Source: a virus
Taxonomy: Duplodnaviria; Heunggongvirae; Uroviricota; Caudoviricetes
Virus record (IMG/VR): IMGVR_UViG_2698536372_000004
DNA: 17,131 nucleotides
Direction: 5' to 3' (one strand)
The translations under genes were made by a program, and so were the position numbers. A model generated the notes under the pieces. That model was not told the origin of the DNA and made no database searches. It saw only the letters and a program-made list of their open reading frames with translations. Below, one piece after another: positions 6,284 through 8,454 of this stretch (the first letter of the stretch is position 1; the number at the start of each line of letters is the position of its first letter).

Positions 6284-6313
6284 GTTTTAAAAATCAAGAT
6301 TTATTAGAGCAAT
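6284..6313. repeat. 30-bp repeat unit, copy A (GTTTTAAAAAT-N6-TTATTAGAGCAAT)
   Basis: 26 of 30 positions identical to copy B at 8425..8454. The 13-bp core TTATTAGAGCAAT is identical; its last base is the first base of the stop codon of the gene at 6313..6819. Confidence 0.8.
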
Positions 6314-6819
6314 TATTGTTGGTGGAGAAGCGCGTTTTCATACTCCCTGACCATTAACGTAAGTACGCCGTGACTCCTGAAAACACGCGCCACTTCAATC
6401 TTATCTTCCAGCGCGAACGCAATTTTACTTAGACCAATTTTCTTCAGGAGATCAATCTTTGCTGGACCGTCATTTCTGTCATCGGTGGCAGGACGCATAG
6501 ATAGCAAAGGCTCAGCCCCATTTGTTACGTGCTTACGCAACCAGGCTCGTGTTTTATCCCTGGCTATCTCACAGCGCCCGGTTACAAACCAGAGGGTGTA
6601 AATGCCGGACAACTGGCGCACCATATCAATAACTGGAGTGATGGGAGCATCAGTGTCACAGGCAAGGTTAAACTCGTTCCAGTGCTCTGTTAATGCACCT
6701 TTGCCAGGTGGTGGAAGTAAATGCAGCCTGTCTTCCGTTGCCTCTGATATCGTCCCATAAATATCTACTATGACGATGTACGGACGTTCCTGGTGTGCGT
6801 GTTTATTGAAAATACTCAA
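6313..6819 (-). CDS. HAD-fold protein resembling the T4 polynucleotide kinase 3'-phosphatase domain; motif I degenerate
   Basis: From recalled T4 Pnk sequence: CDTD..I.P, VTGR(C/E), TR.W and the block ending AL(E/D)D(K/R)..V..F...GV all align. Motif I is VDIYGT rather than DxDGT, so the second Asp is replaced by Tyr. Apparent TTG start at 6819 after a GAGGAGGG RBS. Confidence 0.5.
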   Translation of the reverse strand: MSIFNKHAHQERPYIVIVDIYGTISEATEDRLHLLPPPGKGALTEHWNEFNLACDTDAPITPVIDMVRQLSGIYTLWFVTGRCEIARDKTRAWLRKHVTNGAEPLLSMRPATDDRNDGPAKIDLLKKIGLSKIAFALEDKIEVARVFRSHGVLTLMVREYENALLHQQ

Positions 6820-6835
6820 ATGCCCTCCTCATTGG

Positions 6836-6872
6836 ACGAAAAAAATGCTGGTGGGCGCACTCCACCAGCATT
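6836..6872 (-). terminator. Intrinsic terminator within the minus-strand operon
   Basis: Perfect 11-bp stem (AATGCTGGTGG / CCACCAGCATT) with a 7-nt loop, followed in minus-strand sense by UUUUUUU. The next gene's RBS and start are only about 17 nt further on. Confidence 0.7.
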
Positions 6873-6891
6873 AAATGTGACACTGTAACTA

Positions 6892-8154
6892 TCAGCGAAC
6901 GTAAATAGTGCCGCCGTTCTCTTTTTCCCATGCATCGCTACGTGCATAGCAAACATCGAGAAGTCTTCTTGCCGCAGTTTCCTCTAAACCCAATTCAACA
7001 ACCAACTGCTCATGACGGCGGGTAACTACATCAAATAGGCTATGCAGCCCTTTATTGGCCAGTTCATCAATGAATTCCGGTTCGAACGGCAGCTCTGCCT
7101 CTGCCAACATAACCTCTTGCGCCCACTCAACTCGACGGACCAGTTCCGGGCGGCGGCTTTCCATCTCTTTACAGATCAATTCATGGAAGAACTCTACCCA
7201 ACCTTCCGGCTGGAACTCGCGGAAAATGGCCAGCGGCTGGAAGTTTGGCATCAACCATTCGTTGATTCGGATATCAATGGCATAGCCCATGTCGCAGCAG
7301 AACTGATAAGCAAAGTCCAGCTTAGAAACGATATAAGGACGCTCGTTATTGAACTCTTTAGGCGATGAGATCCCATAAGCCAGGAGGCGCGGGAAGAAGG
7401 AGATTTGCCCTAACGTCGGATGAAGTTTGCTTGCAGGGAAACGGCGCTCAGTAATGCCATACATTTCCTTCTTGAGCGTCGCAAATTTGGCATTCTCATT
7501 AACCAGCGCGGTAACCTCTGCTTTTTTATTAGCAAATGCCACGCGCGCTTCGCTTGCATCTTTAATAGTTTTTTTGAGCTGTTGGTTAAGGTCGGCGACC
7601 TGCTTACGCAGTTCCTGTCGCTCGCTTTTAGCTTTGTTATAGCGTTTCTCAAGGTTAAAAGGATCAAGTTTCATGATCTCTTTATATTGAGATTTTAGCG
7701 TTGAAATCTGTGAGTTCCGCAGTTCAACCATCGCGGTCATTTCATTGAGTTTTGTTTCCAGCTCAATGCTTATACGTTCGGCATTATCAGCACGCTGGTT
7801 GGCGTCATGCGTCGCATCGTCGATCGCGTCCTGTTGCTGGCGTTTCAAATGTTCAATTTGCAGCTGAAGCTCTTCAATTTCTTTACCCTTCAGACCGAGA
7901 TCCAACTGCATATTTTCAGCTGCATCTACCAGGGAGTTATGGCTATCAGCTTCTGCGTTATAAACATCAATAAGCTGTGCGTGAAGCATCTCCGCTGACT
8001 GAACCGCATTATCAAAAAAACGTGCTGTGAGGTCATCACAACTAACGCGGCGTTGCGCGGCCCGGATGTTCTGGATAATGGCCGGGATACCGGCATTCAG
8101 GACATCAGGGATAGATACATTTTCGATTGATTGGTTTTGTGCTGAAGTGCTCAT
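6892..8154 (-). CDS. Hypothetical 420-aa protein: N-terminal coiled coil, C-terminal globular domain of unknown function
   Basis: Residues ~40-230 are Q/E/K/L-rich with heptad character; the C-terminal ~190 aa match no motif I recognise. Start ATG at 8154 lies 1 nt after the upstream stop (TGAAATG). Confidence 0.55.
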   Translation of the reverse strand: MSTSAQNQSIENVSIPDVLNAGIPAIIQNIRAAQRRVSCDDLTARFFDNAVQSAEMLHAQLIDVYNAEADSHNSLVDAAENMQLDLGLKGKEIEELQLQIEHLKRQQQDAIDDATHDANQRADNAERISIELETKLNEMTAMVELRNSQISTLKSQYKEIMKLDPFNLEKRYNKAKSERQELRKQVADLNQQLKKTIKDASEARVAFANKKAEVTALVNENAKFATLKKEMYGITERRFPASKLHPTLGQISFFPRLLAYGISSPKEFNNERPYIVSKLDFAYQFCCDMGYAIDIRINEWLMPNFQPLAIFREFQPEGWVEFFHELICKEMESRRPELVRRVEWAQEVMLAEAELPFEPEFIDELANKGLHSLFDVVTRRHEQLVVELGLEETAARRLLDVCYARSDAWEKENGGTIYVR

Positions 8155-8155
8155 T

Positions 8156-8374
8156 TCAAAGTTCCGTATTAGCTTGTGCTTCGGTCATTTTTCCTAAGTA
8201 TGAAGGAGGAAGGACTACGCAATTTGTATCCAGTCCCTCACCTATGGCAGCCTGTAAAATTCTGGCTAAGGTGAGTCTCTTGTTGCGATACCTGGTGATG
8301 ACATGCCTGATACCGCCGGTCGGTGTAACAAAGGCGATCAGCCAGTAGTGATATTTCCGTCGGAATGGCCACAT
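8156..8374 (-). CDS. Hypothetical 72-aa protein
   Basis: ATG at 8374 with RBS AAAGGTG. It is the first gene after the minus-strand terminator at 8396..8429, and the repeat motif at 8389..8401 lies immediately upstream. Confidence 0.45.
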   Translation of the reverse strand: MWPFRRKYHYWLIAFVTPTGGIRHVITRYRNKRLTLARILQAAIGEGLDTNCVVLPPSYLGKMTEAQANTEL

Positions 8375-8388
8375 AGTGCACCTTTTGG

Positions 8389-8401
8389 ATTGCTCTAATA
8401 A
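8389..8401. repeat. 13-bp core motif, inverted copy (ATTGCTCTAATAA)
   Basis: Exact reverse complement of TTATTAGAGCAAT. With copy B it forms a perfect 13-bp inverted repeat around the terminator hairpin at 8402..8429. Confidence 0.8.
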
Positions 8402-8429
8402 AAAACGTGATGAGTGTACATCACGTTTT
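8396..8429 (-). terminator. Intrinsic terminator within the minus-strand operon
   Basis: Perfect 11-bp stem (AAAACGTGATG / CATCACGTTTT) with a 6-nt loop. In minus-strand sense it is followed by UUUUUUAUUAG. Sits between the GT-A-like gene and the 72-aa gene. Confidence 0.6.
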
Positions 8430-8454
8430 AAAAATATGGAATTATTAGAGCAAT
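8425..8454. repeat. 30-bp repeat unit, copy B
   Basis: GTTTTAAAAATATGGAATTATTAGAGCAAT. Ends 1 nt before the stop of the GT-A-like gene, and its first bases are part of the terminator stem. Confidence 0.8.

Follow-up and report, generated by a model that had tools for sequence, protein, structure and literature searches.

The stretch of viral DNA analysed here, 17,131 nucleotides in length and referred to as the window, carries a 13-bp motif, TTATTAGAGCAAT, in several copies, raising the question of what reads this motif and whether it is read as DNA or as RNA. The initial annotation favoured nut-type antitermination sites with a boxA-like core and named as alternatives an operator for a phage regulator and a conserved junction left by modular recombination.

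The motif recurs in the window far above chance

Scanning the window we found exact copies of the motif at 6301-6313 (+), 8442-8454 (+) and 8389-8401 (-) as well as a 12/13 match at 12062-12074 (-), confirming the four copies reported before. If up to two mismatches are allowed, the window holds five matches compared to 0.58 expected, a number reached in 0/200 shuffles; the fifth match, at 2988, is located within an ORF and is approximately at chance level. The two copies on the plus strand are embedded in a larger repeated unit, for which the described identity was reproduced, the units 6284-6313 and 8425-8454 being identical at 26/30 bp.

The copies coincide with C1 operators of bacteriophage P1

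The window is that of a P1-like phage-plasmid, being 98-99% identical to P1; the best match among plasmids covers 91% of the window at 98.8% identity. Judged by its sequence, the motif almost certainly corresponds to the conserved core of the operator ATTGCTCTAATAAATTT, a 17-bp asymmetric site for C1, the master immunity repressor of P1 and its relatives; read on the opposite strand, TTATTAGAGCAAT equals the initial 13 nt of this operator. All motif copies (4/4) coincide exactly with protein_bind features designated 'phage repressor C1' in the P1 record AF234172, i.e. Op88, Op86a, Op86b and Op82. The alternative of an operator for a phage regulator was thus the correct one, and the motif is already known as C1 operator, since the same sites are annotated in the P1 genome; the consensus ATTGCTCTAATAAATTT and 22 dispersed operators are given in PMC8546580. 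The operator Oppp/Op83 of AF234172 also maps into the window, as a degenerate fifth site. The operators in the window are:

Op88/OpmgT, 6297..6313, minus strand: ATTGCTCTAATAAATCT; 1 mismatch to the 17-bp consensus; 27.4 bits; protein_bind 'OpmgT, former Op88' in AF234172
Op86b/OpmgRb, 8389..8405, plus strand: ATTGCTCTAATAAAAAA; 22.6 bits; annotated in AF234172; inverted relative to Op86a
Op86a/OpmgRa, 8438..8454, minus strand: ATTGCTCTAATAATTCC; 23.4 bits; annotated in AF234172
Op83/Oppp, 11155..11171, plus strand: TATGCACTAATTAATTT; 20.0 bits; annotated in AF234172
Op82/O26, 12062..12078, plus strand: ATTGCACTAATAATTTT; 25.9 bits; annotated in AF234172; divergent pmgL / gene 26 control region

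Op83 (11155-11171) was absent from the motif list of the initial annotation. Applying the 17-bp consensus at ≤3 mismatches to the window recovers four sites compared to 0.08 expected, the four copies showing 1, 3, 3 and 2 mismatches to ATTGCTCTAATAAATTT. A weight matrix derived from 19 P1 operators gives 20-27 bits for the window operators, compared to 0.34 sites of ≥10 bits expected per shuffled window. For Op86a/b in particular, binding of C1 is predicted on the basis of the GenBank annotation. None of the genes c1, lxc and coi is present inside the 17-kb window, so the repressor would be supplied from elsewhere on the element. Op94/Olpa, expected in the window from the constant offset to P1, was not found there because the left 5.8 kb of the window represent a different module.

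The neighbourhood of Op82 suggests a further reading, i.e. the motif being the -22 box of Lpa-dependent late promoters, as P1 late promoters contain a conserved upstream box and the pair LPpmgL/LP26 is located 25 nt from Op82. However, the -22 boxes of the annotation lie elsewhere (window ~12103-12111) as distinct 9-bp features and differ in sequence, and 0/4 motif copies are annotated as late promoter. We rejected this candidate, the probability of which we regard as close to nil.

Predicted promoters and genes assigned to the operators

The features next to Op86 and Op88 are:

PpmgR, 8425..8453, minus strand: predicted sigma-70 promoter TTGCTC-17-TAAAAC; -35 inside Op86a; 'predicted' in AF234172
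pmgR, 8156-8374, minus strand: ORF; 98-99% identity to P1 PmgR
pmgS, 6892-8154, minus strand: ORF; 98-99% identity to P1 PmgS
P2pmgT, 6269..6312 (joint range with P1pmgT), minus strand: predicted promoter TTGCTC-17-TAAAAC; -35 inside Op88
P1pmgT, 6269..6312 (joint range with P2pmgT), minus strand: predicted promoter TTGATT-17-GAAAAT; -35 abuts Op88
Small hydrophobic ORF, 6128..6213, minus strand: MNTAFKIIMAAIYFWLFSITFGGIVAHG; first gene downstream of Op88

In the AF234172 record, the predicted promoters PpmgR, P1/P2pmgT and P1/P2pmgL overlie operators. The geometries of the predicted local promoters match those of the named promoters P1ban, Plpa and Pc1, with PpmgR having the geometry of P1ban at Op72a. 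The predicted promoters at Op86a and Op88 are weak, agreeing with the consensus at 7-8/12 positions, and are unreported by a consensus scan. An alternative -10 for PpmgR is the sequence TACACT (8413-8418) in the loop of the hairpin between Op86a and Op86b; the Cronobacter phage JK004 shows TGAAGC at the PpmgR -10 position and TATCAT in the hairpin loop. Both JK004 (TTGTTT-17-AATAAT) and Salmonella plasmids (TTGATT-17-AAGAAT) retain a promoter of the P1pmgT type. For Op86 and Op88, we infer which promoters are used and where exactly transcription starts.

The genes pmgR and pmgS (6892..8374, minus strand) constitute the operon assigned by sequence to the control of Op86a/b. The start, the ribosome-binding site and the hydrophobic N-terminus of the small ORF downstream of Op88 are conserved in JK004 and in the Salmonella plasmids. 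Op88 heading a conserved small membrane-protein gene, unannotated in the reference record, is one addition made by our comparison.

The operator core is conserved in distant relatives

In the whole P1 genome, 7/7 exact copies of the 13-mer and 5/5 copies with one mismatch are located in annotated C1 operators. JK004, whose proteins show 69% (PmgS), 76% (C1), 60% (Lxc) and 56% (Coi) identity to the P1-type proteins, contains 14 copies at ≤1 mismatch, all of which are intergenic in a genome being only 9.9% intergenic. Counting the 13-mer across related genomes, as had been proposed as a check, revealed no chance scatter, with 12/12 copies in C1 operators in P1 and 14/14 intergenic copies in JK004. 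Presence of the motif together with a C1 homologue in one element was observed for both reference P1 and JK004. In P1, the promoters of c1, coi, ban, kilA/repL, ssb, dmt, ref and lpa, all classic targets of the repressor, carry the motif as well. As counted from the annotation tables, 15/20 annotated P1 operators overlap an annotated sigma-70 promoter and 2 further ones are located within 30 nt downstream of a -10.

The Op88 core is identical at 13/13 positions in JK004 and the Salmonella plasmids and the Op86a core is invariant across the three lineages, as are positions 2-13 of the Op86b core, of which position 1 differs in JK004 and the Salmonella plasmids. These cores sit at the same junctions, i.e. 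pmgQ/pmgR and a second one, located downstream of pap in JK004 and of pmgS in the Salmonella plasmids, where pap is missing, and they stay while the flanks and hairpin stems at the pmgQ/pmgR and Op88-type junctions diverge. An operator core unchanged over three lineages diverged to ~70% protein identity is a second comparative addition. Among close P1-like contigs, polymorphism of the Op88, Op82 and Op83 cores is only modestly below that of the flanks, representing a weak depletion.

This distribution bears on the reading of the motif as chiefly a junction sequence, either remaining from modular recombination among P1-like elements or used for it. The homology of P7, RCS47 and SJ46 to the window ends 170-270 nt away from Op88, in what is the known variable region between pap and lxr (PMC9603915; PMC6906374), and the operators abut the stop codons of upstream genes, Op88 starting on the final base of the pap stop codon and Op86a beginning 2 nt past the pmgQ stop codon. 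However, the homology breaks after the small ORF and not at the motif, and most copies (Op86a/b, Op82 and Op83; those at ban, ssb, dmt, c1 and others) are inside blocks colinear in all relatives. Across genera, the 13-mer is conserved together with a repressor of 76% identity, which argues for a binding site rather than a scar. Of the recombination proposal there remains, incidentally, the location of Op88 within a few hundred bases of the edge of the variable region; as an explanation of the motif we consider it highly improbable.

Hairpins next to the operators give no support for nut-type sites

Three RNA structures are of importance for the antitermination reading:

Hairpin between Op86a and Op86b, 8402..8429, minus strand: 11-bp stem and 6-nt loop, followed by UUUUUUAUU
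9-bp hairpin, 6242..6264, minus strand: fold z = -2.7; at about +1 of the P1pmgT transcript
Strong intrinsic pmgS/pap terminator, 6844..6872, minus strand: 11-bp stem with 6 G-C pairs, followed by TTTTTTT; -18.1 kcal/mol

RNA folding substantiated the stable hairpins described near the motif, at 8402-8429 together with its two inverted motif arms (-26.9 kcal/mol, z = -8.7) and at 6242-6264. The hairpin 8402..8429 probably acts as intrinsic terminator for the ppp-pmgQ unit upstream of it. The 3' A-run of Op86b is the complement of the terminator T-tract. Across the lineages, 5/11 pairs of its stem vary and all of them remain paired, by two double compensatory changes and three G-U pairs viable on the sense strand only. 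The Op86 pair enclosing a terminator with compensatory stem evolution is the third comparative addition. The hairpin 6242..6264 we read as a likely 5'-terminal stem-loop; in both JK004 and the Salmonella plasmids, a hairpin with an unrelated stem sequence occupies the Op88-type position, likewise 32-35 nt past the operator. On the plus strand, the hairpin 6242..6264 resembles a terminator.

That the motif is always found beside hairpins or terminators holds for these two sites, whereas no structure is adjacent to Op82 at 12062, for which folding resulted in z = +1.2 and +0.1. The suggested enrichment of the motif near hairpins was not apparent in the intergenic gaps of JK004, where hairpins are equally strong in gaps with and without motif (median -16.1 versus -15.7 kcal/mol, p = 0.23), suggesting that proximity to hairpins is a property of the gaps and not of the motif.

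Read on the minus strand, the motif becomes AUUGCUCUAAUAA, which together with a downstream hairpin was interpreted as a boxA-containing, nut-type site loading NusB/NusE or a phage factor and resulting in terminator read-through. The hexamer UGCUCU is common to the motif and rrn boxA, a hairpin follows Op86a and Op88 at a spacing conserved in three lineages, and some read-through is plausible given that pap is located behind a strong terminator without an annotated promoter of its own. However, the resemblance to boxA is restricted to the hexamer TGCTCT, and the ungapped matches to rrn boxA UGCUCUUUAACAA (8/13 and 7/13) and to lambda boxA CGCUCUUA (6/8) are at the background level of the window, in which 294 13-mers match rrn boxA at ≥8/13, 60 of them better, and 127 8-mers reach ≥6/8 of lambda boxA. 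Op86b, Op82 and Op83 are on the plus strand and antisense to the pmg transcripts, so that 2/4 copies and 3/5 operators have the wrong orientation. Op82 is without hairpin, and the hairpins at Op86 and Op88 have no stem or loop sequence in common between sites or lineages, unlike boxB. Moreover, the motif copies overlap predicted -35 hexamers and would thereby be positioned upstream of the local transcription start; the conserved 32-35 nt correspond to a -35, 17 nt, a -10 and ~6 nt, suggesting a promoter geometry with the hairpin at +1. The same motif being present at the P1 promoters of the classic repressor targets named above also argues against a nut-type function. No N- or Q-like function is among the annotated AF234172 features, a literature search on P1 yielded no antitermination system of the nut/boxA kind and Rfam gave no matches. 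Nut sites ahead of internal terminators are not supported by these data, and we judge this reading to be extremely improbable.

The Op86 composite

Op86a, the terminator and Op86b form a 66-nt composite which folds as the single long hairpin described above and the geometry of which, 13 + 12 + 11 + 6 + 11 + 13 nt, is exactly conserved in the three lineages. It is present in at least 120 viral contigs in a scan that required exact cores, for which reason core conservation is not measurable from these contigs. These properties would fit a dual role of the inverted Op86 arms, which would also act in RNA upon pmgQ read-through by extending the terminator hairpin to a 24-bp interrupted duplex with a possible function in RNA processing or stabilisation or in insulating the operons from each other. 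However, the outer arms never covary, 12/13 pairs being invariant and the sole variable pair losing its pairing; this invariance of the outer helix without compensation suggests a sequence constraint as two protein-binding sites predict. Furthermore, termination would precede transcription of the 3' arm, and the other paired C1 sites in P1 (Op72a/b and Op99a/b) have no hairpin between them. We consider a dual role very unlikely.

It is also unlikely that Op86a, the terminator and Op86b represent a single integrated switch and insulator, in which one 66-bp palindrome would terminate the upstream operon, house the next promoter and take two C1 molecules. If this were true, the next operon would have its promoter within the terminator, the 6-nt loop of which is -10-like; the transcript from this promoter would be devoid of the 5' arm and thereby escape termination, and the operator arms in the read-through RNA might form a long duplex for processing or stabilisation.

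A model for repression by C1

For the C1 operator reading we propose a model in which the five operators (Op88, Op86a, Op86b, Op83 and Op82), each being intergenic, would head early or lytic transcription units and overlap a sigma-70 promoter or sit just downstream of it, with their own TTGCTC capable of acting as -35 hexamer. C1 encoded by the remote c1 gene would, in the prophage and together with the corepressor Lxc, occupy the operators and block RNA polymerase, while inactivation of C1 by Coi, by Ant1/2 or by heat (c1.100 mutants) would allow transcription of the units. The neighbouring hairpins would be separate elements sharing short gaps with the operators, one terminating the preceding operon from its position between Op86a and Op86b and the other forming the 5' stem-loop of the transcript starting beside Op88. 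C1 binding of ATTGCTCTAATAAATTT and repression are taken from the literature and the local sites are predicted to follow it; heat inactivation of C1.100 results in the induction of C1-controlled genes, and a C1 site occludes a ref promoter (PMC4713147).

The significance of this assignment lies in the correct annotation of DNA sites that would silence lytic and morphogenetic genes in P1-type prophages, and recognising the motif guards against falsely claiming a new antitermination system. Within Enterobacteriaceae, P1-type elements frequently carry resistance genes.

Comparison with known systems

Lambda nut and rrn boxA resemble the window sites only in UGCUCU and in a hairpin tens of nt downstream, present at 2/5 sites. 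They are strand-specific RNA signals within transcripts with a conserved boxB or boxA consensus, whereas the window operators are DNA sites in both orientations over predicted promoter -35 regions. Op72a/b (ban) and Op99a/b (c1) are, like Op86a/b, inverted pairs of C1 sites controlling one promoter. The two 17-mers share 6 bp at both Op72 and Op99; at Op86, in contrast, 40 bp including an intrinsic-terminator hairpin separate the cores, and the record annotates two monovalent operators. The C1 operators of P1/P7 (Op2a/b, Op21, Op51, Op53, Op55, Op68, Op72a/b, Op82, Op83, Op86a/b, Op88, Op94 and Op99a-e) are the same sites as those of the window, sharing the asymmetric consensus, the intergenic placement close to predicted promoters and the genome-wide scatter. 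The window element differs from reference P1 by ~2% in sequence and by the replaced variable region left of Op88, and its Op83 has T for C at position 1, with nothing essential being different.

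Identification of the motif as C1 operator core

Scanning the window recovered the 13-mer TTATTAGAGCAAT in exact copies at 6301-6313 (+), 8442-8454 (+) and 8389-8401 (-) and in a 12/13 copy at 12062-12074 (-), the two 30-bp units holding 13-mer copies being 26/30 identical, as the initial annotation had described. At up to two mismatches the window contains five matches compared to 0.58 expected, and 200 dinucleotide-preserving shuffles never gave as many; the fifth one, at 2988, is located within an ORF and corresponds to a level that chance supplies.

The DNA is bacteriophage P1-like, in reverse orientation relative to the reference record, with region 5800-9200 being 98-99% identical to P1 isolates and 97-99% to P7, SJ46 and RCS47. 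In the annotated P1 record AF234172 (window coordinate = locus coordinate - 201) all four copies match, base-for-base, protein_bind features assigned to "phage repressor C1", the master immunity repressor of P1. A fifth annotated operator is too degenerate to be captured by the 13-mer.

C1 operators in the window
6297-6313, minus strand, OpmgT (former Op88), protein_bind feature in AF234172
8438-8454, minus strand, OpmgRa (Op86a), protein_bind feature in AF234172
8389-8405, plus strand, OpmgRb (Op86b), protein_bind feature in AF234172
11155-11171, plus strand, Oppp (Op83), annotated fifth operator
12062-12078, plus strand, O26 (Op82), protein_bind feature in AF234172

The 13-mer is the reverse complement of bases 1-13 of the 17-bp asymmetric operator consensus ATTGCTCTAATAAATTT quoted in PMC8546580, according to which C1 binds 22 operators dispersed over the genome and thereby represses lytic genes (PMC8546580). 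The 17-mer consensus at up to three mismatches finds exactly the four sites in the window (0.08 expected). A weight matrix built from 19 P1 operators finds exactly five sites of at least 10 bits (0.34 expected), which is partly circular as the matrix includes the reference homologues of the window's own sites. Judged from these sequence matches, the motif constitutes the operator core of P1's C1 repressor, and the four copies plus the fifth site are the already annotated Op88, Op86a, Op86b, Op82 and Op83, i.e. known biology.

Distribution in P1 and conservation in related lineages

In the complete P1 sequence (94,800 bp, assembled from four loci), all seven exact copies of ATTGCTCTAATAA, all five one-mismatch copies and four of the eight two-mismatch copies are within annotated C1 operators; the copies do not occur at chance frequency. 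Among the operators matched are the well-known sites of ban, kilA/repL, ssb, dmt, c4, ref, coi and c1 and, with two mismatches, that of lpa. According to the annotation tables, 15 of 20 P1 operators overlap an annotated sigma-70 promoter and two further ones lie at most 30 nt downstream of a -10, indicating that the motif is a promoter-associated DNA site rather than a terminator-associated RNA site. The C1-controlled genes ssb, dmt, kilA, ban and ref are induced once the thermolabile C1.100 is inactivated, and a ref promoter is occluded by a C1 site (PMC4713147).

An unannotated two-mismatch copy, ATTGCTATAATTA, is present in the cre/c8 gap downstream of the predicted Pc8 (1485-1497 of P1 record locus L002) and may represent a weak C1 site overlooked so far, or just a TATAAT resembling a -10; others are at 9459, 39140 and 72653. 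Omat/Op2b (L002 2628-2645, 18 bp) is given as minus strand in AF234172, while its operator-sense sequence CATGCACTAATAAATAT reads on the plus strand, probably reflecting a strand error in that record.

PmgS led to Cronobacter phage JK004 (69% identity), which has its own C1 (76%), Lxc (60%), Coi (56%) and Lpa (67%) homologues. Allowing up to one mismatch, the 13-mer is present 14 times in JK004, each time between genes, with intergenic DNA making up 9.9% of the genome (P about 1e-14). The Salmonella plasmids CP077703 and CP146848 were compared as third lineage. The motif is kept in these relatives. Among close P1-like contigs, polymorphism is only modestly lower in operator cores than in flanks (0.69 vs 1.82, 0.46 vs 0.80 and 2.08 vs 2.37 variant cells per position).

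Hairpins and the antitermination reading

The initial annotation had read the copies as boxA-like, nut-type antitermination sites always placed beside hairpins or terminators. The hairpins it described are present, but no structure adjoins the copy at 12062 (z = +1.2 and +0.1), so the association does not hold throughout. Across all 41 JK004 intergenic gaps of 40 nt or longer, the median best local hairpin is -16.1 kcal/mol in the 12 gaps with and -15.7 kcal/mol in the 29 without an operator (Mann-Whitney p = 0.23), and hairpins of -10 kcal/mol or stronger occur in 92% and 86%, respectively. Hairpins are a general feature of short gaps in this compact genome, and operators reside in these gaps because the next transcription unit begins at the end of the preceding one.

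The boxA resemblance is at background level: ungapped, Op88 matches rrn boxA at 8/13 and Op86a at 7/13 positions (lambda boxA, 6/8), with 294 13-mers of the window matching rrn boxA at least as well and 60 better. Three of five operators are antisense to the pmg transcripts, and since the motif overlaps predicted -35 hexamers it would be missing from transcripts starting there. The neighbouring hairpins have no loop or stem in common, and the window has no Rfam match. No N- or Q-like function is listed among the annotations of the P1 genome, and a full-text literature search turned up no nut-type antitermination system for P1. The known C1 mechanism explains every feature, including those a nut model cannot, i.e. 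the occurrence in both orientations, at repressor-controlled promoters elsewhere in the genome and in co-conservation with C1, and so displaces the antitermination reading.

The Op88 junction

The Op88 core is conserved at 13/13 positions in all lineages compared. After it, a TTGATT or TTGTTT resembling a -35 is separated by 17 bp from a hexamer resembling a -10. At 32-35 nt after Op88 comes a hairpin, its stem sequence being unrelated from lineage to lineage, and past it a conserved CAATCAATCA..GGAGC precedes a small hydrophobic ORF. As the distance equals the promoter geometry (-35, 17 bp, -10, about 6 nt), the hairpin would be placed at the very 5' end of the transcript. The Salmonella lineage retains the whole Op88 module without the pap gene, indicating that Op88 goes with the downstream unit rather than with the upstream terminator. 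The local promoters at operators are weak and only "predicted" in the record.

Downstream of Op88, the small ORF (6128-6213, minus strand, MNTAFKIIMAAIYFWLFSITFGGIVAHG) comes first among the genes. Its ribosome-binding site is GGAG, with the conserved CAATCAATCA upstream, and JK004 and the Salmonella plasmids have homologues beginning at the same position; the ORF lacks annotation in AF234172, and SJ46 has a "membrane protein" there. The gene pap (6313-6872, minus strand) lies between Op88 and a strong intrinsic terminator (6844-6872); no promoter of its own is annotated. It is entirely absent from the Salmonella plasmid lineage, in which the operator directly follows the pmgS terminator region, and looks like an inserted cargo gene.

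The Op86 junction

Between pmgQ and pmgR all three lineages share one geometry: core, 12 nt, 11-bp stem, 6-nt loop, 11-bp stem, inverted core. In the operator arms 12 of 13 pairs are invariant and the lone variable position loses pairing. The constraint here is on sequence, which is what a protein-binding site predicts. Of the 11 inner-stem pairs, five differ between lineages and every one of them stays paired, by two double compensatory changes and three G-U pairs in JK004 (L005 5725-5752). The latter would be C-A mismatches on the opposite strand, which argues for selection on the sense (minus-strand) RNA only and not for a DNA cruciform or bidirectional terminator. Given the invariant U-run that follows it, the inner hairpin most plausibly serves as intrinsic terminator for the ppp-pmgQ unit.

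The annotated promoter PpmgR (TTGCTC-17-TAAAAC) is weak and "predicted" in the record, its geometry being equal to the named P1ban. JK004 reads TGAAGC in place of the P1 -10 TAAAAC, whereas the hairpin loop is -10-like in all lineages, being TACACT in P1 (8413-8418, minus strand) and TATCAT in JK004 (L005 5736-5741) and the Salmonella plasmids (L008 1338-1343). The true -10 may be this loop, in which case PpmgR would be misplaced and the promoter embedded in the terminator. With either choice, the -35 region falls within reach of Op86a, which covers it, and Op86b comes shortly after the predicted start, suggesting that C1 bound there would repress by occlusion or roadblock. That the palindrome of Op86a, terminator and Op86b works as a single switch combining terminator, promoter and operator, or additionally functions as RNA, seems improbable to us.

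At least 120 IMG/VR viral contigs (L010-L129) carry the Op86a/about 40 nt/Op86b composite; among the matches listed almost all are of P1 type, a few contigs have a Salmonella-type stem, and single-base stem variants are often G-U-compatible.

Other regions of the window

Op82 overlaps two predicted sigma-70 promoters. The divergent late promoters LPpmgL and LP26, which depend on Lpa, share a -22 box about 25 nt away from Op82 (12062-12111), bringing early (C1) and late (Lpa) control within about 60 bp. A G+C-rich palindrome at 16946-16967 (ATGCCCGG...CCGGGCAT) scores as terminator in either direction, the plus side having a T-run. Positions 1-5800, the left third of the window, are not colinear with reference P1, lambdoid-type genes (ead/Ea22-like, EaA, VRR-NUC, DUF551, DUF4752) replacing pmgU...humD and none of lpa, c1, lxc and coi being present. 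This module corresponds to the variable region that P1-like phage-plasmids are known to have between pap and lxr (PMC9603915, region 8; PMC6906374, RD-5).
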